Positions 3,389 through 38,506 of a stretch of DNA of 64,000 nucleotides are shown piece by piece. The notes below the pieces were generated by a model that was given only the letters and a program-made list of their open reading frames with translations, did no database searches and was not told the origin of the DNA. The position numbers and the translations under genes were made by a program. Source of the stretch: Promethearchaeota archaeon (GTDB taxonomy: Archaea; Asgardarchaeota; Lokiarchaeia; Sigyniarchaeales; SOKP01); assembly GCA_016839585.1 (NCBI GenBank), contig JAEOTZ010000058.1, forward strand, positions 129,948 through 193,947, given 5' to 3'. How positions within the stretch are numbered: position 1 is the first letter of the stretch; the number at the start of each line of letters is the position of its first letter.

Positions 3389-3766
3389 ATGGATGAAAAA
3401 GAATTTGTAGAACAATTAAATAAAGCACAAGACTTAATGATACAAGAAAAATACAATGAAGCTATTAATTTAATTGAAGAGATAAAGGAGATTGAGAAAA
3501 ATAGTGATTTTAATTATAACTTAACTCATCGCCTTTATCAACTTGATTCAAACATTCATTCACTTTTTAATCAACAAGTTATTTTAAACCATATTAATGA
3601 GATATCTAAAAAACAGGGATCAATTTCTTTTCAAGAAATAAACTTATTAATAAAAAAAAGTACCAAATTAGACTTGAGTGATGATATTTTAAGGAGAGAA
3701 ATTGAATTATTAATTTTAAGAAACCTTTTAAATTGCGAAATAGATGGAAATCTATTGAAATTTTAA
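3389..3766 (+). CDS. Hypothetical protein, helical N-terminus plus PCI-like winged helix
   Basis: ISFQEI...IELLILRNLLNCEIDG resembles a PCI-domain C-terminus. Confidence 0.55.
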   Translation: MDEKEFVEQLNKAQDLMIQEKYNEAINLIEEIKEIEKNSDFNYNLTHRLYQLDSNIHSLFNQQVILNHINEISKKQGSISFQEINLLIKKSTKLDLSDDILRREIELLILRNLLNCEIDGNLLKF

Positions 3767-17297: not shown

Positions 17298-18410
17298 TTG
17301 AAAATTCTATTAACAGGTCCATTTGGAAATGTAGGGTTGAGCACTTTAGAAGAATTAATTACTAAGAATTACAATATACGAGTATTTGAAATTAAAAACA
17401 AGAAAAATAGAAAAGTAGCTAAAAAATTTGAGAATCAAATTGAGATTATTTGGGGAGATCTACGTAATTATGAAGATGTTGAGAAAGCTGTAAAAAGTGT
17501 TGATGTTATTATTCATTTGGCAGCTATTATACCTCCACTTGCGGATAAACTCCCTGAATTATCAGAAGAAGTAAATGTAGAAGGGACAAAAAATATAATA
17601 AAAACTATAAAAAATCAAATTAATAAACCAAAATTAATTTTTACGTCATCAATAGCTGTTTATGGTGACCGCAGGAAAAACCCCATGATCAATCTCACGG
17701 ATCCTCTTAATCCAAGCAAGGGCGATTATTATTCACTTACTAAAATTAAAGCAGAAAAGATTATTCGAGAATCAGGTATTGATTTTTCAATTTTTAGGTT
17801 AACTTACATCACTTCTGTACATAAACTTGAAATGGATCCTTTGATGTTTCATATGCCCTTGGATACTTGTATAGAAATCTGCGATACAAAGGATGTTGGA
17901 TTAGCTCTAGTTAATGCGATCGAATGTAATGAAGTATGGGGTGGTACATTCCATATAGCAGGAGGGGAACAGTGTAGAACTACATATCGAGAATATATTA
18001 ATGATATGATGGAAATTTTTGGCTTAGGTAGGGATTTTTTACCTGAACAGGCATATGAACAAAAAGACTTTCATTGTGGATTTATGGATACAGAAAAGTC
18101 TCAGAATCTTTTAAGATACCAAAAACACACCCTCAAAGATTATTATGATGAAGTAAGAAAGAAAGTTGGGCCAAAGAGAATTTTTATGCCAATGGTTAAA
18201 TGGGCAATTCGTCTAAACCTTTTGAAACGTTCTGAAGCATATAAAAGAAATAAATTCTTTAGAAAAAAGATTGGTGCTTTCACTGTGTCTGAGAATAAAT
18301 TAATAAGAAAGATCCTTTACAATAATTTTAAAAAGATTGATATACTTGAACAAAAAGTTTATGAATTAGAAAAAGTTATACAATTTTTAACTGAAAAAGA
18401 TGAATTTTAG
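17298..18410 (+). CDS. NAD-dependent epimerase/dehydratase (extended SDR)
   Basis: ILLTGPFGNVG, HLAA and YSLTK motifs; GGAGGAG SD precedes TTG at 17298. Confidence 0.9.
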   Translation: MKILLTGPFGNVGLSTLEELITKNYNIRVFEIKNKKNRKVAKKFENQIEIIWGDLRNYEDVEKAVKSVDVIIHLAAIIPPLADKLPELSEEVNVEGTKNIIKTIKNQINKPKLIFTSSIAVYGDRRKNPMINLTDPLNPSKGDYYSLTKIKAEKIIRESGIDFSIFRLTYITSVHKLEMDPLMFHMPLDTCIEICDTKDVGLALVNAIECNEVWGGTFHIAGGEQCRTTYREYINDMMEIFGLGRDFLPEQAYEQKDFHCGFMDTEKSQNLLRYQKHTLKDYYDEVRKKVGPKRIFMPMVKWAIRLNLLKRSEAYKRNKFFRKKIGAFTVSENKLIRKILYNNFKKIDILEQKVYELEKVIQFLTEKDEF

Positions 18411-18696
18411 ACCTATTTGAACAAAAGGAGCAATATTAAAGGTTTTATTTAGACAAATCTTTCAAATGAATCTGTAATTGATTATTTTTTAAAAAATTTT
18501 TTTTATTCCTTTTAATTTTCTAAATTAAAATTTTCTGTATGGTATATTTCAATTAAAAATATTAAACTGGATAATGGATTTCCCTTATCTTGATAAATGA
18601 ATAAATTTAAAAATTTAAATACCATAAAGATTGTAATAGTTAAAAATAGAAATTATTGAGTTTGAAAGAGTAATTGAGGTGAAAGGGGAAAGGAGA

Positions 18697-20637
18697 ATGA
18701 AAGATGAGAATAATCATCGGATTGGATACTATGCTTGTCAGTGAGGTATAAATATTAAAGGTAAAGTGGATTGCGGTAAACTAGTAGAATTTGCTAAAGA
18801 GATGGACGATGTCGTCATTTCAAAGAGCCATGCCTTTTTGTGTACTGAAAGTGGCCAGAATGAAATTATAGAGGATATAAATGAAAAAAAATTAACCAGT
18901 ATAGTTGCTTCTGCTTGAACACCTCGAACTCACGAACCTATTTATCGAGATTCAATTGCAAAAACAGATCTAAATCCATACTACTTTCAAATGGTTAATG
19001 TAAGAGAACATTGCTCATGGTGCACTGAAAGTAAGGAAGAGGCATTAGAAAAAGCAAAAATCTTAGTAAGGAGTGGAATCGAGAGAGCTAAAACTTTAGA
19101 AGTGGTACCTATTAAAACAGTTCCGGTAGAAAAAGCCACTTTGGTAGTTGGAGGAGGAATTGCAGGAATGAATGCAGCTTTAGATCTTGCAAATGCAGGA
19201 ATAAAAGTCTATTTAGTTGAGAGTAAAACGACAATTGGCGGAAGAATGGCTCAATTAGATAGAACATTCCCTACAGATGACTGTGCCATATGAATTTGCG
19301 GTCCAAAAATGCTAGAAGCCAATAGAAATGAAAATATTGAAATTCTCAGTTATGCTGAAGTGAAAAATGTAGAAGGTTGCGTCGGAAACTATGAAATAGC
19401 TGTGGAAATGAAACCACACTTCGTAACAAATGACTGTAATGGCTGTGGAGCGTGTTCAGAAGTTTGTCCTGTTTACACTTCTAACTATTTTGATGAGAAT
19501 CTTGGAGCTCGTAAAGCTATTGATATTGCTTTTGGTCAAGCTGTACCCTTCTTATACGATATTCAAAGAGATTGTTGCGTGGAATGTTTTAGTTGTGTAG
19601 AAGCCTGTGAACTAGACGCTATAGATTTTAGTCAAATACCAGAAGAAGTGAAATTTAAGGTAGGTACTATCATTATTGCCACGGGGTGGGATATCTATGA
19701 GCCTTATGGTGAATATGGCTATGGTGAATTCGATAACGTAATTACACAAGCCCAATTAGAACGAATGTTGGCACCTAACGGTCCATTAGAAGGCCATGTA
19801 AGGAGAATTTCAGATAATAAAAAACCAAAAGAAATTGTATTTATTCAATGTGTTGGAAGTAGAGATACGGAAAGAACTTATTGTAGTGGCGTATGCTGCA
19901 TGTTAGCACTTAAGAATGGGAAACTGATAAAAGAAGAATTTCCCGACGCAAATATTACTATTTGTTATATAGATATGCGAACTAACGAAAAAGGTTTTGA
20001 AGAATATTATCAACGAGCGAAAAACTCCGATATTCGTATGATTCGAGGTAAAGTAGGTGAGATATCTGAAGATCTTGAAACTAAGGATGTCAAAATACGC
20101 GTATACTCCTCTTTAACGGATGAAATTATTAAAATTGATGCTGATTTAGTTGTATTGTCTAGTGCAGCATTACCTTCAAAAGGGACAGAACAAATTGCTA
20201 AAGTACTGAATTTGGATGTAGATCGAAATGGATTTCTAACTGAGAGCCATTTTGGACTTATGCCACAAGAAACAAAGACAAAGGGTATTTTTATTGCCGG
20301 CTTTGCTCAAGGACCGAAAGATATTTCATATTCTGTCTCTCAAGCTAGAGCTGCAGCAAGTAAAGTCGCAGAATTAACAGCTCCAGGAAAAGTAGATATT
20401 GAATTAATAACTGCGGAAATAGATAAAGATTATTGTATCTCTTGTAGAAGATGTGAAAAAGAATGTCCTAAAGGTGCTATTAAAATTGTTGATATCGAAG
20501 GAGCTATTGTTGACGAAATAAATTGTGATGGATGTGGTATATGTGCTACTTGCTGTCCTACGCAGGCTATTGATATACGATATTATAGAGATTATCAATT
20601 ATATGCTGAAATTGAGGGGATATTAGGAGGTGATTAA
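18697..20637 (+). CDS. hdrA: Heterodisulfide reductase subunit A, selenoprotein (Sec16, Sec74, Sec199; 646 aa)
   Basis: One frame from ATG 18697; TGA at 18742 (CQUGINI), 18916 (SAUTPRTHE) and 19291 (DCAIUICGPKM), each matching a Cys in the Cys-HdrA at 25110. Confidence 0.93.
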
Positions 20638-20641
20638 ACAG

Positions 20642-21085
20642 GTGGATAATAATTTAAACATACTAATGTTTGCTTGTTTAAAATGAGGATATGGTGCTGC
20701 TGATCTAGCGGGTGTGTCACGTTTTAAATATACACCTTCGGTTAAAATAATAAAGGTACGATGCACTGGACGAGTTGATGTAAAACATATCTTATATGCG
20801 GTTAAATCTGGAGCTGATGGTGTTATGGTGGTTGGATGACGACCAGATGAATGTCAATTTAAGAGTGGAAATTTTAAAGCTCAGACTCATGTTGATTTAG
20901 CGAATAGGATCTTAGATCGAAGAGGTTTTGGAAATCAAAGAGTCAATCAATATTGGCTGAGTAGTGCTGAATCTGAAAAATTGGTGAAGAGTGTGGAAGA
21001 TACTCTTGAGAAAATTAGAAAGATTGGACCCAATCCATTAAACTTACAAGAAATAAAAGGAGTAAAAAAAGGAAAAATCCATTAA
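20642..21085 (+). CDS. mvhD: MvhD/VhuD [2Fe-2S] subunit, selenoprotein (Sec15, Sec66; 147 aa; absent from ORF track)
   Basis: GGAGGTGA SD then GTG; FACLKUGYGAADLAG...RCTGRVD...GADGVMVVGURPDEC; TGA at 20684 and 20837. Confidence 0.93.
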
Positions 21086-21088
21086 CTA

Positions 21089-21156
21089 CTCCCATAGAAT
21101 GATTCTTATAAAAAAATTATTGTTATAAGAGAACTATCCACGCGATGGAGGGAGTT
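21089..21156 (+). promoter_or_regulatory. Putative eukaryote-like SECIS element
   Basis: ATAG-A-ATGA-T-TCTTATAA-[AAAAATTATTG]-TTATAAGA-GA-A-CTAT, closed by CTCCC/GGGAG, directly after the mvhD(Sec) stop. Confidence 0.7.
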
Positions 21157-21208
21157 TTAAAAAATTTATAAAAAAGTTATAAAAAATTATTATAAAATTG
21201 AAGGAAAT

Positions 21209-22714
21209 ATGGTTCAAATAATAAATAGTAAATTGTTCGAAAAAATCTCTCCTAATGATTTGATCGAAGCTACATATAAAGCTTCAGGAAATTTCCAAGT
21301 AAGAGCATTTTTTGAAGCTAAAGATGAAATCTTAAAAACAGGCAAATATACAGAAGAAGAATTCTATGAAATCTTAGATGGAATGGTTGATGCAGAAACT
21401 GAACGATACTTAATTTTAAATAAAGTAAAGGGAAAGAAACCTCTTTTTTTAGAAGAAATTGCTGAAATAATCAAAGAATTTCCTCCTGAAAATGTAATAA
21501 GAGATATCATTTACTTAAAGGAACAAGGATATATTGAGGAACATATTGAGATTAAAACTAAAACTGTTATAAAAAAAATTAAGGGAGAAGAAAAGGAAGT
21601 TGAAGAAAAAGAATATTTTTATAGATATCAAGTAAAGGAGCTTCCAGATAATTTTATTGAACATTATTTTGAACCAATTTCTATTGTATATGATGCTGGT
21701 GTATGTTGTCAATGTGGATGGTGTGCTTCTATTTGTCCTGTCAATGCAATTGCAGTCACTGCAGACACTCTTGAGATAGATGATGAGGTTTGTATGAAGT
21801 GTGGATTATGTTATTCTGTTTGTCCTCGTTCCTTTTCAATTGAACAAGCTTTATTGAGTATGAAAAAAATTGATAAATCTCTTCAATTTTCTGAAAAGAT
21901 TAACGGATATCTTAATACATATTCAGCCACAACAACTAAAGATAAGATTAAAAAAGTACGCCAAGATGGAGGAATAGTAACCTCCTTACTTGAGTATTTA
22001 TTAAAGAATAAATTAGTTGATGCTATTGTAGCAGTGCAACATTCAAAAGATTTCTGGAAACCAGAACCTGTTATTGTAGATAATTTAAACGATTTGTATA
22101 AAACGGGTGGAACTAAATATGCAAATGCATCGACTTTAGCTATTATAGGTCAAACAAAAAATTATAAGAATATAGCTGTTGTTGGAACACCATGTATGAT
22201 TAATGCAATTGAAAAAAGTAATTTATTTCCAACTAGAGTACCTTTTTTCAACAACATTAAATATAAAATTGGGCTTTTTTGCATGGAATCTTTTCCTTAT
22301 GAAGGTGTGCTTAAACTAATCAAAGAGCAATTTGATAAAGATTTTACGAAAGTAACAAAGATGGATATAAGCGGTGGAAAATTTATCATTTATTTGGATT
22401 CAGGGGAGGATTTAAGAGTCCCCCTTAATAATGTTAAATCCTATGCTCGAGCCAATTGTCATTATTGTGAAGATTTAACTTCTGATTATGCAGACATTTC
22501 TGTAGGCTCAATAGGCTCTCAAGCAGGTTGGTCTTCCGTTATCACTCGTTCAAAGAAAGGTGAAGAAATTTTCCAAGGAGCTGTTGAAGTAGGTTTAATT
22601 GAGTTTCAGAATCTAAAAGATGTTAAACCAGGACTAGGTCTTTTAGAAAGAATTGCTGATACTAAAAGAAAAAATTGTAAACCAATTGAATTAATTAAAA
22701 ATCAAAAAACTTAA
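21209..22714 (+). CDS. FrhB-family protein with 2x[4Fe-4S] and ~150-aa N-terminal extension
   Basis: CCQCGWCASICP, QDGGIVT, GTKY, VGTPC, GLFCME and CHYCED motifs. Confidence 0.9.
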   Translation: MVQIINSKLFEKISPNDLIEATYKASGNFQVRAFFEAKDEILKTGKYTEEEFYEILDGMVDAETERYLILNKVKGKKPLFLEEIAEIIKEFPPENVIRDIIYLKEQGYIEEHIEIKTKTVIKKIKGEEKEVEEKEYFYRYQVKELPDNFIEHYFEPISIVYDAGVCCQCGWCASICPVNAIAVTADTLEIDDEVCMKCGLCYSVCPRSFSIEQALLSMKKIDKSLQFSEKINGYLNTYSATTTKDKIKKVRQDGGIVTSLLEYLLKNKLVDAIVAVQHSKDFWKPEPVIVDNLNDLYKTGGTKYANASTLAIIGQTKNYKNIAVVGTPCMINAIEKSNLFPTRVPFFNNIKYKIGLFCMESFPYEGVLKLIKEQFDKDFTKVTKMDISGGKFIIYLDSGEDLRVPLNNVKSYARANCHYCEDLTSDYADISVGSIGSQAGWSSVITRSKKGEEIFQGAVEVGLIEFQNLKDVKPGLGLLERIADTKRKNCKPIELIKNQKT

Positions 22715-22718
22715 TTGA

Positions 22719-23828
22719 ATGATTTTTATGAGTGTAAAAACATTTCAAGATTTAATAACAGAAGTTCATGAGAGAGGAATATGTCAAGAATGTGGAGGCT
22801 GCGTAAGTTTTTGTAGTTCAGCTGAGTATAATGTTATTGGTCTCAAAGATCCATATAAACCTCCTGAATATATTAATAAGGAAAAATGTCTTGAATGTGG
22901 AATTTGCTATTATATATGTCCTCAGACTCATATTTTGGATAATGAGCTTAATAAAACGTATAAATTTACTGATTATTCTTCAATGCCAATAGGGTATTAT
23001 GAAGATATTTACTCTTGTCAAGCTACTGACGCGGACTTTTTGAAATATGGAACTGATGGTGGGGTTGTAAACTCTATTATAAATTTTCTAATAGAGAAGA
23101 AGTTAATTGATGGTTCTGTAGTTTCCAAAACAGAGGCTCCGTTTTCTAGAGAAGCTACATTTGCGAATAGTAAAACTGATTTATTAAAAGCTTCTGGAGC
23201 TAAATTAGATATTTCAGCTCAATTGGATGAGATCCAAAAGTTTTGCACATATACTCATTCGATTCCTAAATTGAATCATTATAAATTCAAAAAATTAGCA
23301 GTCGTAGGTACACCTTGTCAGATTTATACAATGAGATGTATGCAAGATTTAGGGGTAACTCCTTCAGAAAATATTGAAATATGTCTTGGACTCTTCTGTT
23401 ATGAGAATTTTTTATTTGATATCTCCAAAATTACTAAACTTGAGAAAGATTTCAATATAAAATTTACAGATATTGAAAAAATCAACATCAAGGAAGATTT
23501 AATTTTTAGATTAAAAGGTGATAAGGTAATTCATGTACCTTTTAACCGATTAAAATATTTTATGCGCCCTGCTTGTAATGCATGTGGTGATTTTACAAAT
23601 ATCTATGCAGATATTTCTTTTGGAGGTCTAGGTTCTCCTGATAAATATACTACTGTTATAACTCGAACAAAAAAGGGAAAAAATATCTTTTCCAGAGCAT
23701 TAGATGCGGGTGTAATTAAAAATTTAGATTTAAATCAGGCAAAAAAGAAAAAAATGTTTGATTTAATTAGCCAATATTCTCAATCAAAATTAAAACGTCA
23801 AGAAAAATTTATGAATAACCTAAAATAG
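22719..23828 (+). CDS. FrhB-family protein
   Basis: CQECGGC, TDGGVV, VGTPCQ, GLFCYE and CNACGD motifs. Confidence 0.9.
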   Translation: MIFMSVKTFQDLITEVHERGICQECGGCVSFCSSAEYNVIGLKDPYKPPEYINKEKCLECGICYYICPQTHILDNELNKTYKFTDYSSMPIGYYEDIYSCQATDADFLKYGTDGGVVNSIINFLIEKKLIDGSVVSKTEAPFSREATFANSKTDLLKASGAKLDISAQLDEIQKFCTYTHSIPKLNHYKFKKLAVVGTPCQIYTMRCMQDLGVTPSENIEICLGLFCYENFLFDISKITKLEKDFNIKFTDIEKINIKEDLIFRLKGDKVIHVPFNRLKYFMRPACNACGDFTNIYADISFGGLGSPDKYTTVITRTKKGKNIFSRALDAGVIKNLDLNQAKKKKMFDLISQYSQSKLKRQEKFMNNLK

Positions 23829-23877: not shown

Positions 23878-25113
23878 TTGTATAATGATACATTAGATTA
23901 TTTAGAAAAGATATATGAACCAGATTTAAGAAATCTTCTAAAAAGATGCTATCAGTGTGGACGGTGTAGTGGAGTATGTCAATTAAGTAAAGTTCAAAAA
24001 TATGCACCAAGTAAAATAATTGAACTAATATTAGAAGGTTTTGAAGATAGAGTACTAGAAAGTGGCGAATTGTGGGATTGTTTAACTTGTAATCAATGTC
24101 TTAAGGATTGTCCCGAAGACATTAATTTCGCGGATATCGTAAGGATTGCAAGATATAAAATGAGACATTTTGCTAATCAAAATCCTGACGAAATTGTTGC
24201 TCATAAAGGGATTTATACAACTATTTCTGAAATCATGAGTCGTCCCTATATAACGCCAGAAAGATCACTTGACTGGGTTCCAAAAGGATGTAAAATATCA
24301 GATAAAGGCAATGTATTATATTATGTAGGGTGTTTACCTTTTTTTAATTATGAATTTGAGAATTTAGATTCAATTGCGACAAGCACATTAAAAATATTAT
24401 GTCAAATTGAAAAAGAACCTATTGTAGTATTTAAGGAAGAAAATTGCTGTGGTCATGATATTTATTGGGGTCAAGGTAAATTGAAAACCTTTATAAAGCT
24501 CGCTATGAAGAATATGGAGATGTTTGAAAAAGCAGGTATATCCAAAATTGTAACCGCTTGTGCTGAATGCTATAGGACATTTAAAGTTGATTATCCTAAT
24601 ATATTTGAAGATTTTAATGATAAATTTGATGTGAAACACGTTATTGAATATATTTATGAAAAATGGAAAGAAAATCTAATTCAATTTCATAATCCAAATA
24701 AAAAAAGTGAAAAAATACCTTTCACATATCATGATCCATGTAGGCTAAGTAGATTTTTACCTAAAGATAATAATATTATGGAAAAAGTTCGAGAGATCTT
24801 TAAAGAATTCAAAGACTTAGGTTATGATTTTAATGAAATGGAACATAATCAGAAAAACGCTTTATGTTGTGGAGTAAGTTCTTGGATGAATTGTAATGAA
24901 AAATCTAAAGCACTAAGATATAAAAGAATGTTAGAAGCAAAATCAGCGGGAGATATAATGGTTACTTCCTGTCCAAAATGTAGAATACATCTTAGCTGTC
25001 TTCAGGATGATTTTGAGGATATTGCTTCAATTGAAATTTTAGATTTTTCAGAATTTCTAATTAACCATATAAAGTTAATAAAACCTGATATAAAAGGTGA
25101 GGAAAAGAAATGA
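23878..25113 (+). CDS. HdrD/GlpC-like Fe-S oxidoreductase (HdrC-like plus CCG domains)
   Basis: CYQCGRCSGVC, CLTCNQCLKDCP, NCCG, YHDPC, LCCG and SCPKC motifs. Confidence 0.88.
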   Translation: MYNDTLDYLEKIYEPDLRNLLKRCYQCGRCSGVCQLSKVQKYAPSKIIELILEGFEDRVLESGELWDCLTCNQCLKDCPEDINFADIVRIARYKMRHFANQNPDEIVAHKGIYTTISEIMSRPYITPERSLDWVPKGCKISDKGNVLYYVGCLPFFNYEFENLDSIATSTLKILCQIEKEPIVVFKEENCCGHDIYWGQGKLKTFIKLAMKNMEMFEKAGISKIVTACAECYRTFKVDYPNIFEDFNDKFDVKHVIEYIYEKWKENLIQFHNPNKKSEKIPFTYHDPCRLSRFLPKDNNIMEKVREIFKEFKDLGYDFNEMEHNQKNALCCGVSSWMNCNEKSKALRYKRMLEAKSAGDIMVTSCPKCRIHLSCLQDDFEDIASIEILDFSEFLINHIKLIKPDIKGEEKK

Positions 25114-28100
25114 TGGAAGGTTCTGTTTTAGTTATAGGTGCTGGAATTGGTGGAATCCAATCCGCTTTAGATTTAACTGAATTAGGCTTTAAAGTCTATT
25201 TAGTGGATAGAACTCCCTCAATTGGAGGTCGTATGGCTCAACTTGATAAAACATTTCCTACAAATGATTGCAGCTTATGTATTCTTGCCCCTAAAATGGT
25301 AGAAGTATTTCGAAATCCAAATATAGAATTAATGACGTATCATGAAGTGCAAAAACTTGCTGGTAAACCAGGAGATTTTACTGTTACTGTTCTTAAAAAA
25401 CCTCGTTATGTTGATGAAATAAAATGTAAAGGATGTGGAGATTGTGCCGCTAAATGTCCAAAAATAGAGGTACCTAATCTCTTTGACATGAATTTAGGTA
25501 AGAGAAAATCAGTATATATTCCTTTTCCTCAAGCAGTTCCTCCAGTCTATCTAATAGACCCTGAATTATGTTTGAAACTTACTAAGGGGGTATGTGGTGT
25601 ATGTGCTAAAGTATGTCAAGCGGAGGCTATTGATTTTGATCAAAAACCTCAAGAAATAGAATTAAAAGTTGGAGCGATTGTAGTTGCTACTGGATTCGAT
25701 ATGCCTGCAAAAAATTTATCTTCACGGTGGGGTTATCATTATGAAAATGTAGTAAGCGCTCTTGAATACGAAAGGATTTTGTGTGCCTCTGGACCATTTG
25801 GTGGTCATGTTTTAAGACCAAGTGATCAGAAAGAACCTGAAAAAATAGCTTTTATTCAATGCGCAGGCTCAAGAGATTTGCATGAGGGGGTGCCTTATTG
25901 TTCTAGTGTTTGTTGCATGTATACTGCTAAAGAAGCAATAATAACGAAAGAACATTCTGATAACTCACAATGTTTTGTATTTCGACATGATATCAGAGCA
26001 TTTGGTAAAAATTTTTATGAATTTACGCAAAGAGCACAAAAAGAATATGGAGTAAAATATTTTCAAACTAAGATAAGTAAAATAGTAGAGGATCCGGAGA
26101 CAAACGATTTAATTATTCATTATGAAGATTTAAAAACAGGTACATTTCATGATTTTCAAGCTAATTTAGTTGTATTAGCGACTCCTTTAGTCCCCTCCAC
26201 AGGATCTAAAGATTTAGCAAAGATTTTAGAAATAGAACTGGATGAATATCACTTTTTCAAAGAAAAAGATTATTTTAATAAATCTAAATCAACTAAAGAT
26301 GGAATATATTTATGTGGATTCTGTCAAGGTCCGATGGATATACCAGAAACTGTTGCTGATGCAAGTGGAGTAGCAGGTCAAGTTGCAGCATTCTTGAATT
26401 CTGTTAAATTTGATCATATAAAAGAGAAGTTAGAAGTTCCCGAATTAGATATAAAAGCTACTGATGAACCAAGAATAGGGGTTCTAATCTGTCATTGTGG
26501 AATTAACATAGGTAAATATGTTCATGTACCTCTACTTGCTGAATATGTAAGAACTTTGCCTAATGTAGTTCAATGTGAAGATAATTTATACTCATGTAGC
26601 TCTGACTCGCAGACACGAATTAAAGAATTAATTAAAGATCACAAATTAAACCGATTTATTGTTGCTTCTTGCACACCAAGAACCCATGAAGCTTTATTTC
26701 AAGAAACCTGTCAAGAAGCAGGTTTAAATAAATATTTATTCGAAATGGTTAATATTAGAGATCAATGTTCTTGTGTTCATATGGACGATGCAGAAGCAGC
26801 AACCCAAAAAGCTAAAGATTTAATAAGAATGTCTGTTGCTAAATCAAGATTATTAAAACCTCTGAAAGAAGAATTATTAAAGATTACTCCAACCTCATTA
26901 ATTATCGGCGGTGGAATTGGTGGAATGAGTGCAGCCTTAAACATTGCTGAACAAGGTTTCAAAACATTTTTAGTAGAAAAAGAGAGCTTTTTAGGAGGAA
27001 ATTTGAATTACCTAAATGTGTTATACCCCATTGAAGAAAATGCTTCAGACTTCTTAAATGAGACTATCGAAAAGGTTAATCATAATAAAAATATTCAAAT
27101 CTTCCTAAATGCAAAAATTGGAGATATTAAAGGATATGTTGGTAATTACATCGTATCTATTGTTGATTCAAAAAATGAAACTCACGAATTAAGTATAGGA
27201 ACTATAATTGTAGCTACTGGAGGTAAAGAATATAAACCTAAAGATATGTTTCAGTATAAAAAAGAGAATAAAAATGTCATAACCCAATTAGAACTAGAAC
27301 AAAAACTAAAAGAAAAAGGGAAATCTTGGCTTGATGATATAAATAGAATAACAACAATTCTGTGTGTAAATGCACGGCAAGTTGAAGGAATAACCTATTG
27401 TTCTAACATTTGCTGTGGGAATTCTATTAAAAACATTGGACTCTTAAAAAAGTTAAAGCCTGAACTTGAAATTGCGGTACTTTATAGAGATCTTCAAATG
27501 GCTAAGAAAAAGTATGAAGAGTATTATCGTGAACGTAGAAAAGATGCTATATTTTTAAGATATGACTTGGATAATATACCAATCATCAGTAAAGTAAACA
27601 AAGATCCAGAAAAATACAATATAAAATTTTACGATACTAATCTCCAAGATTTCATAGAATTTAATACAGATTTAATTGTATTATCAACTCCTATGATTCC
27701 GGCGGATAATTTGGAAGAATTAGCAAAAATGCTTAAAGTTCCTTTAGATAGAAATGGTTTTTTCCTAGAAGCCCACGTAAAATTAAGACCATTAGATTTT
27801 GCCACAGATGGAATTTTCTTATGTGGATGCGCACAATGGCCAAAAAATATACAAGATACTATTTCTCAAGCAAATGGAGCTGCGGGTAGAGCAAGTAGAT
27901 TTTTAAGCGCCAAAGAAATTAAAACTTCGGGAATAGTTGCAGAAGTAGATCCAGTAAATTGCATTGGGTGTGGAAAATGTGAATCAGTATGTCCTTATAA
28001 CGCTATTGATATTTTAGAATCTGCAAAAGATTATGAGGAAGTAAGCTTAATTGTAAGAAAATCATTTGTTAATTCAGCCTTATGTAAAGGGTGTGGTACA

Positions 28101-28196
28101 TGCGCTGCAACTTGCCCAAATGGAGCTATATCTATAATGCAATACGATTTTGATCAAATAACTGCTATGATAGAATCATATTTATTAGAATTATAA
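25110..28196 (+). CDS. Large HdrA-like protein with two FAD domains (Cys-encoded)
   Basis: GAGIGG...DKTFPTNDCSLC; internal CHCGINI/CTPRTHE; second GGGIGG; C-terminal ferredoxin. Confidence 0.92.
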   Translation: MMEGSVLVIGAGIGGIQSALDLTELGFKVYLVDRTPSIGGRMAQLDKTFPTNDCSLCILAPKMVEVFRNPNIELMTYHEVQKLAGKPGDFTVTVLKKPRYVDEIKCKGCGDCAAKCPKIEVPNLFDMNLGKRKSVYIPFPQAVPPVYLIDPELCLKLTKGVCGVCAKVCQAEAIDFDQKPQEIELKVGAIVVATGFDMPAKNLSSRWGYHYENVVSALEYERILCASGPFGGHVLRPSDQKEPEKIAFIQCAGSRDLHEGVPYCSSVCCMYTAKEAIITKEHSDNSQCFVFRHDIRAFGKNFYEFTQRAQKEYGVKYFQTKISKIVEDPETNDLIIHYEDLKTGTFHDFQANLVVLATPLVPSTGSKDLAKILEIELDEYHFFKEKDYFNKSKSTKDGIYLCGFCQGPMDIPETVADASGVAGQVAAFLNSVKFDHIKEKLEVPELDIKATDEPRIGVLICHCGINIGKYVHVPLLAEYVRTLPNVVQCEDNLYSCSSDSQTRIKELIKDHKLNRFIVASCTPRTHEALFQETCQEAGLNKYLFEMVNIRDQCSCVHMDDAEAATQKAKDLIRMSVAKSRLLKPLKEELLKITPTSLIIGGGIGGMSAALNIAEQGFKTFLVEKESFLGGNLNYLNVLYPIEENASDFLNETIEKVNHNKNIQIFLNAKIGDIKGYVGNYIVSIVDSKNETHELSIGTIIVATGGKEYKPKDMFQYKKENKNVITQLELEQKLKEKGKSWLDDINRITTILCVNARQVEGITYCSNICCGNSIKNIGLLKKLKPELEIAVLYRDLQMAKKKYEEYYRERRKDAIFLRYDLDNIPIISKVNKDPEKYNIKFYDTNLQDFIEFNTDLIVLSTPMIPADNLEELAKMLKVPLDRNGFFLEAHVKLRPLDFATDGIFLCGCAQWPKNIQDTISQANGAAGRASRFLSAKEIKTSGIVAEVDPVNCIGCGKCESVCPYNAIDILESAKDYEEVSLIVRKSFVNSALCKGCGTCAATCPNGAISIMQYDFDQITAMIESYLLEL

Positions 28197-28214
28197 AAAA
28201 TGTTGTAATATATT

Positions 28215-28652
28215 ATGCCAAAAGCAAAAACAAAAGTAATAAGAAAAGACTTTACTCCAGAAATACTAGTTTTTTGTTGTAATTGGTGTTCGTATGCAGG
28301 AGCAGATTTAGCAGGGGTTTCCAGATTTCAATATCCCCCTAACATGAGAATAATACGAGTAATGTGTTCTGGAAGAGTTGATCCTGCATTTGTAATAAAA
28401 GCTTTAAAAGAGGGAGCTGATGGAATACTCATCACAGGATGCCATATTGGCGATTGTCATTATATTTCTGGAAATGAGTATGCTCAAGAAAGATTTGGAC
28501 GATTACATGAAATAATAATTAAACAATTAGGTATTAATGAAAAAAGAGTCAGGTTAGAATGGGTAAGTGCATCAGAAGGAAAGCGGTTTGCTGATTTGAT
28601 CACAGAATTTACAAACCAAATAAAGGAATTAGGACCTTTGAAGGTACTTTAG
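28215..28652 (+). CDS. mvhD: MvhD [2Fe-2S] subunit (Cys version)
   Basis: FCCNWCSYAGAD, MCSGRVD and GCHIGDCHY motifs. Confidence 0.95.
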   Translation: MPKAKTKVIRKDFTPEILVFCCNWCSYAGADLAGVSRFQYPPNMRIIRVMCSGRVDPAFVIKALKEGADGILITGCHIGDCHYISGNEYAQERFGRLHEIIIKQLGINEKRVRLEWVSASEGKRFADLITEFTNQIKELGPLKVL

Positions 28653-29083
28653 TTAAAACCATTTAAAGATTAAAGAAGAATCCTGTTTTTCTTATAAATC
28701 TTAATTTTTTAATACCTATTTAAGAATAAATTTTTTTATATAAACCTCAAGTTCCATATTATCATAGCTGAATTCAATAAAAAATAGGAGTTAATATTAT
28801 TAATAACGATAAATGATAAGGAAAAATTTATCGATATTGATCAAAGTTTACTAAAGTGATAGCCATTTATTGAAAGAATTTTTGCTTTCAATAAAATATA
28901 TATGAAAGATTTTCAGAAATTTACTTTATTATTAATGGAATTCGACATTTTTGAGCATAATACTTAAATAAATGCTTTTACTTATCTTATGATTAGCACA
29001 TATTTTCTTGACCGAATTGTTAAGAAATTTTTCCAATAAAATTGAATAATTAAGTTATTACATTGTTCTATGAGGTAATTTCT

Positions 29084-33567: not shown

Positions 33568-34842
33568 ATGATTAGTGAGCTAGCAGAAATATTTAACAAA
33601 ATAGAACTCGAATGGATTGATTCTTCAGAAGATTTAACAAATAGTGAGCAATACCGCAATTTTATGGAATTTTTTCCAAACTTAAAATCAATCTTTAAGT
33701 TAGGTAAAAAAAAGAGCGAAAATGAATTTAATAGAACTCTAAAACACATATTTAGAGTTTTCAAAGTATTTTTTCAATTAAAAGATGGAACTTTTACTCA
33801 TGAAACCCTATCTTCTAAATCAATACAACTTATTAGCGCAAAAGTTATTAATCAGCTATGTGAAAATGAAAATATTTTACCATTGATTCTTATATATCAT
33901 GATATTGGTAGATTCTTCGACCGAAAAAATCATCCTTATCAAAGTTATCTATTATTATCTGAGAGAAAATTACTTGATCCATATGGTCTTTCTGAAAATA
34001 AACAGTTACTAATTAAAAAAATAATTCAATACCATCTTTTATTTGCTACTATTTATACTGGTGAATCTACCTTTTACGGAATATATGCCTTACTTAATGA
34101 CAAAGAATTCATTCCAATATTATCTAAGAAAAAGAATAGGGAACTTTTCATTAATCTTTTAGAAATTTTTACTTTTATCGATATTTTAGGATATAATTAT
34201 GCTAAAATTTATGATCATTATGTTGACTATTATAATGAAATTAATTTTATTTTGAAAGACATTTTAAATTGTTGGCTAGATAAAGAACTAATTTTAAGAC
34301 GAGCTTATACTTATTCTCAGGAATGGCTTGAGTGGAGAATTGCTGGAGCCCTTAGAATATTTCAATTTGTTGAAACAAAGCCCCATTTAACCAAAGAATT
34401 TTATTTTAATAAATTGATAGAAAGTATTAAGGAGACTAACAATGAATTGATTAATAATCTCAACTGGGAAATATTAAAAAGTCAATATTTAACCCATTCT
34501 TACAAAATTCAAATCAAGTATGGTTTAGCTTTTTTAATGATTTTAGCATTTGGCAATTTTCAGCGGATGGGATTAAAAATAGATGCTGGAATTTCATATA
34601 AATTAATTTTTTTTTGGACCCTACTTTCAAAAGAAATAGAATCACGAACTAAGGATAAAAAAGTTTACTTATGGAATGTCTATTTAGTAGGAATGCCCCA
34701 TTGGTCAAAAATAGATAAAATATTTATAAATAAGTTAAACGATAATGCAATTGAATTAATTATTAAGAATGCTTCTCAAGAATTCATAAAGGAACGAAAG
34801 GAATATAACCTTTATTTGAATTTAAAACAAATAATGGATTAA
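33568..34842 (+). CDS. Hypothetical protein, HD-domain-like
   Basis: H...LIYHDIGR...H...HLL...D pattern. Confidence 0.55.
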   Translation: MISELAEIFNKIELEWIDSSEDLTNSEQYRNFMEFFPNLKSIFKLGKKKSENEFNRTLKHIFRVFKVFFQLKDGTFTHETLSSKSIQLISAKVINQLCENENILPLILIYHDIGRFFDRKNHPYQSYLLLSERKLLDPYGLSENKQLLIKKIIQYHLLFATIYTGESTFYGIYALLNDKEFIPILSKKKNRELFINLLEIFTFIDILGYNYAKIYDHYVDYYNEINFILKDILNCWLDKELILRRAYTYSQEWLEWRIAGALRIFQFVETKPHLTKEFYFNKLIESIKETNNELINNLNWEILKSQYLTHSYKIQIKYGLAFLMILAFGNFQRMGLKIDAGISYKLIFFWTLLSKEIESRTKDKKVYLWNVYLVGMPHWSKIDKIFINKLNDNAIELIIKNASQEFIKERKEYNLYLNLKQIMD

Positions 34843-34876
34843 ATATATAAATTTAATTTAAAAGAGTTGGTCTTTT

Positions 34877-35860
34877 ATTAGAGCTGCTGTTCTTGAAGAT
34901 GTCCAAAAAATTGTATACAGAGAAGACTACCCAAAGCCAGTTATTGGAACTAATGACGTTTTAGTTAAAGTTCATTATTGCGGGATATGTGGAAGTGATA
35001 TACCAAATTTTAAATATAAATTGTATCAAGTTCCCCTAATACTGGGCCATGAAATATCTGGAGAAGTAACTGAAATTGGTGAGAACATAACTGATGTGAG
35101 AGTTGGAGATAAAGTAGTAGCGATGAATGTTTTACTTGATGTACGTAAAGGCCAATTAGAAGGAATGGGAATATTTGACAATGGAGGATTTGCAGAATAT
35201 GTTAGAGTAAAAAGCAAGAATTTATTTCTTTCTCCTAAAAATATCTCTATTAAAGGAGCCACAATGATTGAATCATTTGCAAATATAACAAGAGCGATAA
35301 GAATATCAAAAATGAGTAAAAATGAAAAGGTTCTTATCATTGGTGGGGGGAATATTGGATTGGCTTTCTTAAGTACAGTATTAAGTGAAAGAAATCCTGA
35401 TTGTATCATTGTTGTTGAACCTCATCAATTTTTAAGAGAAAAAGCTATAGAGCTCGGAGCAAATGAAGCAATTCTCCCAAGTAAGACAAAGATAAAAAAA
35501 ATTTTAAAAAACTTTGGTGCTCCTACATATATTTTTGATAGTGTAGGAAGTGAACAAACTATATTAATGGCAATAGATTTAATTGAAAGAGGTGGTACAA
35601 TTTTAGTAGAGGGTATTCAAAGAACGAAGATTTCATTACCTATCTTTTCAATAATTAACAAAGAAATCACACTTAAAGGATGTTTAGGACATGATAGTGA
35701 AGATATCTTAGCTGCAATTGATTTATTTGCCAAAGAAAAAATTGATCCACATAAATATATTTCTGATGTTGTTGATTTGAAAGATCTTCAAATCACTTTT
35801 CAAAAATTTCTTGAACCTGGGGAAAGAAAATTCATTAAAATTTTAGTAAAACCTAATTAA
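34877..35860 (+). CDS. Zn-dependent alcohol dehydrogenase (MDR); probable ATT start
   Basis: In-frame extension (I/M)RAAVLE...CGICGSD upstream of LGHE; GGGNIG; in-frame TAA at 34859 and no ATG/GTG/TTG before 35021. Confidence 0.85.
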   Translation: MRAAVLEDVQKIVYREDYPKPVIGTNDVLVKVHYCGICGSDIPNFKYKLYQVPLILGHEISGEVTEIGENITDVRVGDKVVAMNVLLDVRKGQLEGMGIFDNGGFAEYVRVKSKNLFLSPKNISIKGATMIESFANITRAIRISKMSKNEKVLIIGGGNIGLAFLSTVLSERNPDCIIVVEPHQFLREKAIELGANEAILPSKTKIKKILKNFGAPTYIFDSVGSEQTILMAIDLIERGGTILVEGIQRTKISLPIFSIINKEITLKGCLGHDSEDILAAIDLFAKEKIDPHKYISDVVDLKDLQITFQKFLEPGERKFIKILVKPN

Positions 35861-35975
35861 TATTTTCTACAAAGTTAATACCCTAACTGGCAAAAAGAAA
35901 CCTTATTATACATTTTCAGTTAAATAATATTATTACCATATCTAAAAAAATAAGATTCGAGGCTAGATTCCAGTA

Positions 35976-37337
35976 ATGGAAAATGATTACCATTTGAAAA
36001 GAGAGAAGAACTTTCATTCATTATTTCGTATTTATTTCATGATATATTTTTGTATTGGCATCCTTCCTGTGAATATTGACAATCTATTAGAAAATCTTCC
36101 TGGAACCACAGAATTCGGTATAGGAGTAGTAATAGCATCTTTTTTAATCGTGGGGATGATAAGCATATTAACATTTGGATACTATGCTGATAAAATAACT
36201 GAAAAAGTATCACGAAAAAGAGTATTTATTTTTACTAATCTATTTTGGGTAATAACTTTTGGTCTAGTTTCATTATCATTAAATTACTATTTTTATCTCC
36301 TTTTTATCACTCTTAGTGCAATCGGTACTGGAGCTTTTTTACCGATTGGGTTCTCAATAATAGGAGACTTTTACTCACCAAAAGAAAGAGGAAAAAAATT
36401 TGGTGTTATGCAATTTGGTTTAATACTAGGTAATGGAATGGGTATTATATTCGGGGGGATATTAGGAAGCTATACTGGACCCTTAGGTTGGAGATTTGCC
36501 TATGGTTTAGGTTCAATTTTGGGATTATTATCTGTTTTAGGATATATTTTTTCAGGAGTTGATCCTGAAAGAGCTCGTACTGAACCGGAATTTAAAGATT
36601 TTGAGGGTGAAATAAATTATAATTATAAAATAACTTTCAAAAATCTAGGTCAATTGTCTAAAATGAAATCCATTTCAGCTATTCTATTATCTGTACTCTG
36701 TTCTGGAATAGCAACTTCTACACTTGGAATATGGGCTATTTTCTACTTAAGCACAAAATTAAGTGGATCTGATGCCGAATTAATTGCTACAACAATATAC
36801 GTTTTAGTTGGAGCAGGAGGGCTTCCTGGAGCTATTATCGGGGGGAGATTAGGTGACCGATTCTTTCGTGCAGGGAAAATACATGGTCGTGTGATTATAT
36901 CATTATTTGGACTTCTATCAGGAATATTATGTATGTTAGGATTTTATCTAATTCCCTTCTTCACTGAAACAACCCTACAAATAGTTGTATCATGGATTTT
37001 TTTCCTTATACTAGGATATTTAGGATATCTTCTTGTATCATTTTCATTGGGAAACCAATTTGCAATATATTCAGAGGTTTGCGTCCCAGAATTGAGGAGC
37101 ACAGCAAATGCATTAAATGGTTTAATGGTAAATTTAGGGGGTATTATTGGAAATTTACTTATTTCCTCCTTAATTGAAAGAAATATGTCATGGCTACCGT
37201 TCGCAATTGCTTTAGTTTTACTAATTTGGCTATTTGGATCATTATTGTGGATATTACCATATTTTTATTACCCAACAGAATCAAAAGAATGTAGAGATTT
37301 AATGGCTAAACGTAGATTAGAATTAGACAAAATTTAG
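35976..37337 (+). CDS. MFS transporter (spinster-like)
   Basis: 12 TM; GYYADK, IIGDFYSPKERG and GGRLGD motifs. Confidence 0.88.
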   Translation: MENDYHLKREKNFHSLFRIYFMIYFCIGILPVNIDNLLENLPGTTEFGIGVVIASFLIVGMISILTFGYYADKITEKVSRKRVFIFTNLFWVITFGLVSLSLNYYFYLLFITLSAIGTGAFLPIGFSIIGDFYSPKERGKKFGVMQFGLILGNGMGIIFGGILGSYTGPLGWRFAYGLGSILGLLSVLGYIFSGVDPERARTEPEFKDFEGEINYNYKITFKNLGQLSKMKSISAILLSVLCSGIATSTLGIWAIFYLSTKLSGSDAELIATTIYVLVGAGGLPGAIIGGRLGDRFFRAGKIHGRVIISLFGLLSGILCMLGFYLIPFFTETTLQIVVSWIFFLILGYLGYLLVSFSLGNQFAIYSEVCVPELRSTANALNGLMVNLGGIIGNLLISSLIERNMSWLPFAIALVLLIWLFGSLLWILPYFYYPTESKECRDLMAKRRLELDKI

Positions 37338-37456
37338 AATAAATTTTTTTTTTCACTAAAATTTATTATTACGTTGTATTATATTTTAATTAACCTTTTA
37401 GATTAAGAATTATTTAATTCTTTAGAACTTAGAATAATCAATCAAATTGGTTGTAA

Positions 37457-38506
37457 TTGGCTGAATTATTTGATTCATCATCATCATCGGATAAGAATCC
37501 TTTTGAAGAATTAGCTATAGTATATGTCTTATATTTTGATGAAGCTCAAGGACATGTTCCTTTATTAATCTATCCAGATGATCGATATAAAGATGATAAA
37601 AAGTTTATGAGACCTATCAAATATCATCCAATATGGTTTTTAAGTGCAGATGAACAAGAAGTTCTCGACCATATAGACTTAGAATTTAAAGGTTATACCT
37701 TTTTTGGTAAAAAATTTTTAACCATTTCCAAGAGAAAAAAAAGAAGGGCAGGATTAGAAGAGGAAACACCTGAAACTATTGTAGTTATCGTATCACTACC
37801 AACTAAACTTGAGATTTTGGGTGATGAACTTATCAAACAATTGACAACTGAGATTAGAGGAAATTTTGAGAAAAATTTATTCGAAATCATCGAATCTGAA
37901 ATCGTGAGAGATGCTGTAATCAAATCTCCTAAAATCGAGAAAATAATCGAAAAGGGGGATAAAATTAAAATTGAGTTAAGAGAATTGATAGAAAAAATAG
38001 TGAATATGTATTTTTCTAGCACAATAAATCAAGCTGATACAACTTCAATAAAAATGCAGAAAGCCATCTCTTACTTAGCTTTAAAAGGTATCGATGTGTC
38101 TCATATCTCAAGTGGAGATTATAAAGATTCATTCTCAAGTATTAAACTATTTGATCCTACCGAAAAATCTAAAGTTGATTTTACAAATAAATTTCAATTT
38201 TCAATTAAAAAAGTAATTATAATGGAAGATAGTCAAGAGTTTGAGATTATAACTCAGAATGATAGTAAGAACGAATTTCATAACCTTTTAATTAAAATTA
38301 CAAATGTAAAAGAGTATTTCGAAAAAGAAATAATGAATGAACACATTGATATTTGGTTTCCAGAAGAAGAATTAGTATTTTTTTCACCAATTATACCTCA
38401 TATTGATGAATATCTATTCTTTATAATAGAAGAAAAGTCTAAAGAAAGATTAATATCAAAAAGAATTGATTTAAATATATTAAGAAATCAAAAAAATAAA
38501 AATTAG
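37457..38506 (+). CDS. Longin/uDENN-like protein with C-terminal beta-sandwich module
   Basis: VLYFDEAQGHVPLLIYP matches the uDENN/longin FD..xG....YP pattern. Confidence 0.6.
   Translation: MAELFDSSSSSDKNPFEELAIVYVLYFDEAQGHVPLLIYPDDRYKDDKKFMRPIKYHPIWFLSADEQEVLDHIDLEFKGYTFFGKKFLTISKRKKRRAGLEEETPETIVVIVSLPTKLEILGDELIKQLTTEIRGNFEKNLFEIIESEIVRDAVIKSPKIEKIIEKGDKIKIELRELIEKIVNMYFSSTINQADTTSIKMQKAISYLALKGIDVSHISSGDYKDSFSSIKLFDPTEKSKVDFTNKFQFSIKKVIIMEDSQEFEIITQNDSKNEFHNLLIKITNVKEYFEKEIMNEHIDIWFPEEELVFFSPIIPHIDEYLFFIIEEKSKERLISKRIDLNILRNQKNKN

Follow-up and report, generated by a model that had tools for sequence, protein, structure and literature searches.

The locus described here lies in a metagenome-assembled genome (3.45 Mb, 29% G+C) of an Asgard archaeon of the Loki type, inside a 64 kb stretch of DNA that was analyzed as a whole and is referred to below as the window. 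Two neighboring genes on the plus strand define it. The first, hdrA, occupies positions 18697–20637 (646 codons, ATG start, TAA stop at 20635–20637) and contains three in-frame UGA codons at 18742, 18916, and 19291, corresponding to residues 16, 74, and 199. The second, mvhD (or vhuD), spans 20642–21085 (147 codons, GTG start, TAA stop) and contains two in-frame UGA codons, at 20684 and 20837. Only 4 nt separate the hdrA stop from the mvhD start, in agreement with the coordinates of the initial annotation of this DNA; the start codon of mvhD is ATG in relatives L021 and L023, versus GTG here.

HdrA has a FAD/Fer4 architecture in Pfam and matches the solved HdrA 9sfi_A over its full length (E = 2e-194), with residue 199 aligned to an X (Sec) and residues 16 and 74 aligned to Cys. 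The mvhD product matches FlpD (PF02662, E = 2e-43). All five UGA codons of the two genes fall at known Sec/Cys positions, and hdrA paralogues of the same genome have Cys or Sec at the corresponding places. The next gene of the cluster to be considered, at 23878–25113, does end in TGA, as the initial annotation had reported, and its stop overlaps the following ATG. In the window, positions 25110–28652 also encode an HdrA-like protein of the double-FAD kind (1028 codons) and, after it, a Cys-type MvhD of 145 codons with an NCBIfam VhuD/HdrA2 C-terminal match; thus, Sec and Cys versions of the pair stand side by side in one cluster.

Just 3′ of mvhD, a hairpin spans positions 21089–21154 (plus strand). 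Its closing, or outer, helix pairs CUCCC (21089–21093) with GGGAG (21150–21154), and helix I pairs AUAG (21094–21097) with CUAU (21134–21137), with G21097–C21134 as the closing base pair. The 3-nt bulge AAU and the GA next to it (21098–21102, from the sequence and the alignment) jointly contain the AUGA motif at 21099–21102, which begins 13 nt past the mvhD stop. Helix II has nine positions, 21103–21111 pairing with 21123–21131, of which the first is a U–G pair here and is non-Watson–Crick in about half of the relatives. It is capped by an 11-nt apical loop, AAAAAUUAUUG (21112–21122), which opens with a run of adenines and closes with a conserved G. On the 3′ side, the core dinucleotide reads AA (21132–21133), i.e., the AUGA_AA variant, at a place where most relatives have GA. 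Between helix I and the 3′ strand of the closing helix, a third arm is formed by the side hairpin CCA-CGCGA-UGG (21138–21148), whose loop is of the YGCRA type. Read from the sequence and alignment, G21101 is opposite A21133 and A21102 is opposite A21132. The succession of helix I, the 3-nt bulge AAU, and the G.A and A.A pairs fits the canonical kink-turn layout, and the RNA may adopt that fold. The first of the two pairs, G21101.A21133, includes an invariant adenine (A21133), whereas the second is A.A here and A.G in most relatives.

The pieces of this structure that the initial annotation had listed, namely CTCCC/GGGAG, ATAG/CTAT, ATGA, the helix TCTTATAA/TTATAAGA, the A-run loop, and CCA-CGCGA-TGG, are all present where it had placed them, and its core register requires one correction. 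It had put the core GA at 21131, which is off by one: G21131 is a U in the nearest relatives (L019–L022), so the core is the AA at 21132–21133. In the same columns, L119 reads ...AAGAG-GA, i.e., a G and then GA. It had also described helix II as short, with a bulged U. However, G21131 is the 3′ partner of U21103 in the ninth position of helix II and therefore no U is bulged; nine positions and an 11-nt loop are the standard geometry. Among 27 sampled orthologous elements, the core columns are GA in 23 and AA in four.

The hairpin is real and conserved, with strong support from covariation. Relatives were chosen by similarity of the MvhD protein alone, and the choice is therefore independent of the RNA. 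A homologous structure is found directly 3′ of mvhD in all relatives identified in this way, from Loki-type, Borr-, Jord-, and Freyarchaeial loci, and a looser version stands behind mvhD at the Methanothermococcus locus. The AUGA is invariant in 13/13 aligned elements (alignment A1), as are loop adenines 2–4 and the final loop G; the 11-nt loop length is common to all Loki-type copies. Covariation was scored on two alignments, of 13 and 22 sequences. Helix II has compensatory changes in 9/9 pairs, with 94% of cells paired. Changes on both sides were seen in 4–5 of the five closing-helix pairs, compensatory changes in three of the four helix I pairs (the closing pair of which is G–C in 19/20 sequences), and changes on both sides in two of the three side-hairpin pairs, of which the first is C–G in 21/21 and the third covaries. 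None of 500 shuffles reached the observed covariation and pairing values, and shifting the partner strand by 1–3 columns halved the pairing.

Folding of individual sequences and pattern searches gave a similar picture. The element folds better than its shuffles (z = −2.7), and RNAalifold recovers helix II unaided (the inner eight pairs). The closing helix is present in the single-sequence minimum-free-energy fold of most homologues, and the closing helix, helix II, and side hairpin appear together in ~20 of 25 elements folded singly. A strict core pattern has 5–6 matches in the 3.45 Mb genome, as compared to 0–2 in reversed or (locally) shuffled genomes, and every match sits behind a UGA-containing gene. 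The distribution of the element was surveyed in a class-level sample of 61 genomes; a covariance model built from the alignment finds it in 49/49 sampled genomes of the same family.

Run without filters over the whole 64 kb window, the covariance model gave 91 bits at 21087–21158, the sole accepted element. The runner-up scored 21 bits; it falls within the coding sequence of the second frhB-like gene (23433–23506) and, lacking an AUGA, was dismissed as a chance match. No second lokiSECIS-like element was therefore found by this model in or near hdrA, or anywhere else in the window.

Genome-wide, eight elements were identified by the model, all just behind UGA-containing ORFs: three behind hdrA–mvhD pairs (contigs C45, C47, and C79), one behind a lone hdrA (C59), one on C49 behind a vhuU-like 34-codon gene with a D-x-U-x-x-C-x-x-H motif, and three (C60, C31, and C9) behind UGA-containing ORFs with no family name. 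Each hdrA–mvhD pair has one element, in 3/3 pairs of this genome and 27/27 sampled from relatives. The two pairs outside the window, on C45 (about 36468–36541, L099) and C79 (46851–46920, minus strand, L110), likewise have one SECIS apiece, located after mvhD; the C45 copy of mvhD uses the UGA within the AUGA core as its stop codon.

The lone hdrA on C59 (about 33864–37600, minus strand, L101) is informative. This hdrA has two UGA codons; ~400 nt of mvhD are lost, and the element is kept directly behind hdrA. The hdrA frame continues through what is left of the 3′ end of mvhD, and the UGA in AUGA serves as its stop. Identity to the C45 paralogue is 88% for the element, against 77.6% for the hdrA coding sequence. 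Retention of the element despite the loss of mvhD is expected if hdrA itself depends on it. The loss could be either a real deletion or an assembly artefact.

The remaining elements stand behind ORFs of various kinds. The lokiSECIS on C60 (22041–22113, L102) has a GA core and follows an ORF of ~116 codons (about 1678–2028) with one in-frame UGA (...SSSTUTLAFC...) and no Pfam match, which may encode a Prx-like or undescribed selenoprotein. The lokiSECIS on C31 (25954–26024, L109) follows an ORF (about 1255–1476) for a predicted membrane protein of ~73 codons, with a UGA near the C-terminus (...GGPSULC...) and no assigned family. The SECIS-like element on C9 (62039–62115, L111) is a weak match of 35 bits with an 18-nt apical region. 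The ORF that ends 4 nt before it has 311 codons, no Pfam match, and a single UGA near, or possibly before, its start. A search for 5′-acting SECIS found no convincing same-strand UGA-containing gene downstream of the C9 and C31 elements.

Judged by its sequence, the element is a lokiSECIS, also called an Asgard type I eukaryote-like SECIS, with all the defining motifs present. As described by Mariotti et al. (2016, Mol Biol Evol, PMC4989117), a lokiSECIS combines a 9-bp stem, preceded by AUGA and followed by GA, with an 11-nt loop whose first nucleotides are adenines and whose last is G; AA after the stem is given there for VhuU only. The same description has one SECIS common to HdrA–VhuD on a polycistronic mRNA, serving up to six UGAs over ~2 kb, an HdrA that always ends in UAA or UAG, and an AUGA that can double as a stop codon. 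The element studied here resembles the published one in the AUGA before a 9-bp stem, the 11-nt loop, the GA/AA after the stem, and the position just behind vhuD, and likewise in having a single element per pair, several Sec in HdrA, an hdrA that never ends in UGA, and a vhuD that may stop at the AUGA. It differs from the 2016 description in having an AA core outside VhuU and U rather than A before the final loop G. The sharing of a SECIS by HdrA and VhuD was reported again for hundreds of Asgard genomes by Huang, Xiao, and Zhang (2024, ISME J, PMC11227280), who described AUGA_AA cores in hdrA/frhD of Lokiarchaeia; as compared to the Asgard type I element presented there, this one shows no difference in kind. 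The lower stem has no conserved nucleotides in that account. The main text of neither paper mentions a side hairpin or three-way junction, and that of PMC4989117 does not mention the closing helix.

The layout is eukaryote-like rather than methanogen-like, as the initial annotation had recognized: the AUGA is present, in its AUGA_AA variant, and the GAA_A bulge is absent. Like eukaryotic SECIS (RF00031 SECIS_1 and related families), the element has an AUGA, unpaired loop adenines, and a G.A core with a kink-turn-type layout, and it would act from a distant site 3′ of the coding sequence. Unlike them, it has a third arm, would serve two cistrons, and occurs in a genome where no SBP2 gene was found. 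None of the Rfam SECIS families matches positions 18000–22000 (cmscan, E up to 10); the Rfam matches obtained in that interval (S15 leader and sau-59 among them) were attributed to chance. In place of the GAA_A bulge of methanogen-type archaeal SECIS (eaSECIS), there is an internal loop of AAU followed by G.A and A.A. The element behind VhuD of Methanococcales (Methanothermococcus okinawensis, L033) is similar in that it belongs to the orthologous gene, starts with AUGA, and is followed by a small G+C-rich hairpin, but its stem and loop lengths are different and the covariance model barely detects it. That SECIS likewise serves two distant UGAs in vhuD (PMC4989117), and hdrA of Methanococcales has its own SECIS element (PMC11227280).

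The genome encodes SepSecS, SelB, and two tandem UGA-containing selD genes. A weak tRNA-Sec candidate adjoins SepSecS, with a score of 34.6 bits, below the Rfam cut-off of 47 bits; ARAGORN found no tRNA-Sec at that locus. A Sec gene cluster on C86 (about 57500–64500; loci L001, L003, and L018) comprises NF045535 'Sel_Asgard' (231 codons) next to SepSecS, the sub-threshold tRNA-Sec candidate, a Nudix gene, a zinc-ribbon protein, SelB (472 codons), and a Roadblock/LC7 protein. In eukaryotes, SECIS is read by SBP2, an L7Ae-domain SECIS-binding protein. The genome has no SBP2-like L7Ae protein; its L7Ae family consists of two small genes, with 125 and 133 codons.

The stop codons of the genes around the element bear on its reach. 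No hdrA ends in TGA, whether in the 17 loci found by protein (0/17) or the 27 found by the model (0/27), where model-found loci were taken one per genome. Such avoidance is expected if hdrA is within the element's reach. By comparison, mvhD ends in TGA in 8/17 protein-found and 20/28 model-found loci; all these stops are inside the element, and nearly always the stop is the UGA of the AUGA. The background in this genome is 12.7% TGA stops among long ORFs.

Taken together, these data make it very probable that a lokiSECIS behind mvhD, on an mRNA shared by both genes, directs Sec insertion at all five UGAs of both cistrons. The element would be a kink-turn-type RNA that meets the side hairpin and closing helix at a three-way junction. 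The mRNA, presumably a co-transcript, would carry at least hdrA, mvhD, and the element, which would let the Sec-specific elongation factor deliver Sec-tRNA(Sec) to five UGAs located 262–2357 nt upstream of the AUGA. Both the reading of the element by a protein and Sec insertion itself are steps that we infer; a search of the literature surveyed found no experimental Sec insertion by any lokiSECIS in any organism. Features counted against this explanation are the A.A in the core instead of the canonical A.G, the failure of Rfam's models of eukaryotic SECIS to match the element, and the lack of an SBP2-like protein in the genome. All the comparative evidence gathered supports the proposal of the initial annotation that one eukaryote-like SECIS serves the UGAs of hdrA and mvhD, namely the sole model match in the window, the same layout in all pairs of this genome and all those sampled from relatives, the absence of TGA stops in hdrA while mvhD frequently stops at the UGA of the AUGA, and the loss of mvhD on C59. 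The shared-SECIS interpretation is right in its main point and has already been published (PMC4989117, PMC11227280).

The element is followed by an A+T-rich spacer (21155–21208, plus strand) with UUUU at 21155–21158, a TATA-like TTTATAAA at 21165–21172, i.e., 7 nt after the UUUU and 37 nt before the next ATG, and that ATG at 21209. The spacer is thus a candidate transcript end and internal promoter. In each of the 20 Loki-type relatives whose loci were extended, the element is likewise succeeded by a spacer of ~50–60 nt, which is room enough for an archaeal promoter. A scan for bacterial-type promoters and terminators returned nothing at the element, archaeal signals being outside the scope of the tool. 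Two sediment metatranscriptome runs contained only 5–7% of sampled words, and the contigs that fell on the window were 151–260 nt long, many of them from relatives; none of these short contigs spans the hdrA–mvhD or the mvhD–element junction.

The initial annotation had drawn from the TGA stop at 25113 that the element might act directionally. This would require one long operon mRNA, running on into the frhB-like, hdrD-like, and further genes, on which only the UGAs 5′ of the element are recoded, and we consider it unlikely. The conclusion does not follow from that stop, which is 4 kb away on the 3′ side, with a U-run and a TATA-like box in between, and by itself calls for no special mechanism; most likely, it would be on a transcript from a promoter in the spacer after the element. 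Directional action draws some support from the stop codons in the Loki-type sample, where the three genes 3′ of the element end in TGA at the background rate (7/59), as opposed to 0/27 for hdrA. However, the difference is not significant (one-sided p ~0.06 in a hand calculation that treats related genomes as independent). Furthermore, with the U-run and TATA-like box found here, and the ~50–60 nt spacer present here and in the 20 Loki-type relatives, separate transcripts account for the same counts, which fit equally an action on 5′ UGAs only or downstream genes on a transcript of their own. Selection against read-through of a terminal UGA may also be weak since it adds few residues (WKVLF at 25113). 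The contrast between hdrA and the downstream genes is confounded by separate transcripts and related genomes and is suggestive at best.

An arrangement more favorable to directional action occurs in Borrarchaeum (L027–L029, about 3404–3500), where the next gene begins ~4–12 nt after the element. The SECIS is therefore probably intercistronic and there is no room for a promoter. In L028, the next gene probably ends in TGA, which makes this locus a single weak hint of co-transcription with a tolerated downstream UGA. The mvhD of L027 ends at a UGA that belongs to the 5′ strand of helix II.

Less probable still, and in our judgment quite improbable, is that the element serves mvhD only and that another, undetected signal, located within hdrA or its 5′ leader, recodes the three UGAs of hdrA. 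The idea draws some weight from the distance involved, since a reach of 1.8–2.4 kb across a stop and a restart is unusual for prokaryotic recoding, and from the covariance model, which detects lokiSECIS-like elements only. Yet, with filters off, there was no second match in the window, and Mariotti et al. (PMC4989117), using RNAz, reported no other conserved structure in or around HdrA. Dependence of hdrA on the shared lokiSECIS is also favored by two observations at the gene itself: hdrA avoids TGA stops, and the C59 paralogue without mvhD kept the element directly behind hdrA. Finally, it is barely conceivable that the hairpin is just a transcript-end or stability structure, with the UGAs read by a SECIS-independent route: the UUUU after the G+C-rich closing helix and the position at the probable end of the hdrA–mvhD unit are what such a structure would have, but the invariant AUGA, A-rich loop, final loop G, and core A play no part in termination, the element is behind UGA-containing genes only (8/8 in this genome), and it overlaps the stop codon in many relatives.

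The service of two cistrons, with up to six UGAs over 2 kb, by one SECIS is unusual and bears on the origin of the eukaryotic Sec system, a point made in 2016 (PMC4989117) and repeated in 2024 (PMC11227280). With the shared arrangement published in both years, the reading of this locus is correct but ordinary. What the locus adds is a clean instance, the AUGA_AA register, the C59 paralogue in support of hdrA's dependence on the element, the stop-codon counts on both sides of it, and the conservation of the third arm and closing helix throughout the elements studied.

The side hairpin and three-way junction may not be in print. The side hairpin accompanies each of the 10 elements of this genome, the two type II elements of selD among them, and is likewise present in all 14 relatives identified by protein alone. 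We tentatively suggest, as a minority view, that the Asgard SECIS is a three-armed RNA that requires its conserved side hairpin and closing helix in order to work. These parts could contact the kink-turn arm by docking, or be bound by the archaeal SECIS reader, and either role, if true, might let one element serve many UGAs across a cistron boundary. A three-arm SECIS that acts only on the mRNA 5′ of the element is a possibility.

The two tandem selD genes on C5 (about 26560–28960; L103, 1560–3961) each contain one UGA and have their own type II SECIS, which the covariance model missed. These elements carry an apical mini-stem as well as the same side hairpin with its GCGA loop. Unlike hdrA and mvhD, these two neighbors do not share one element.
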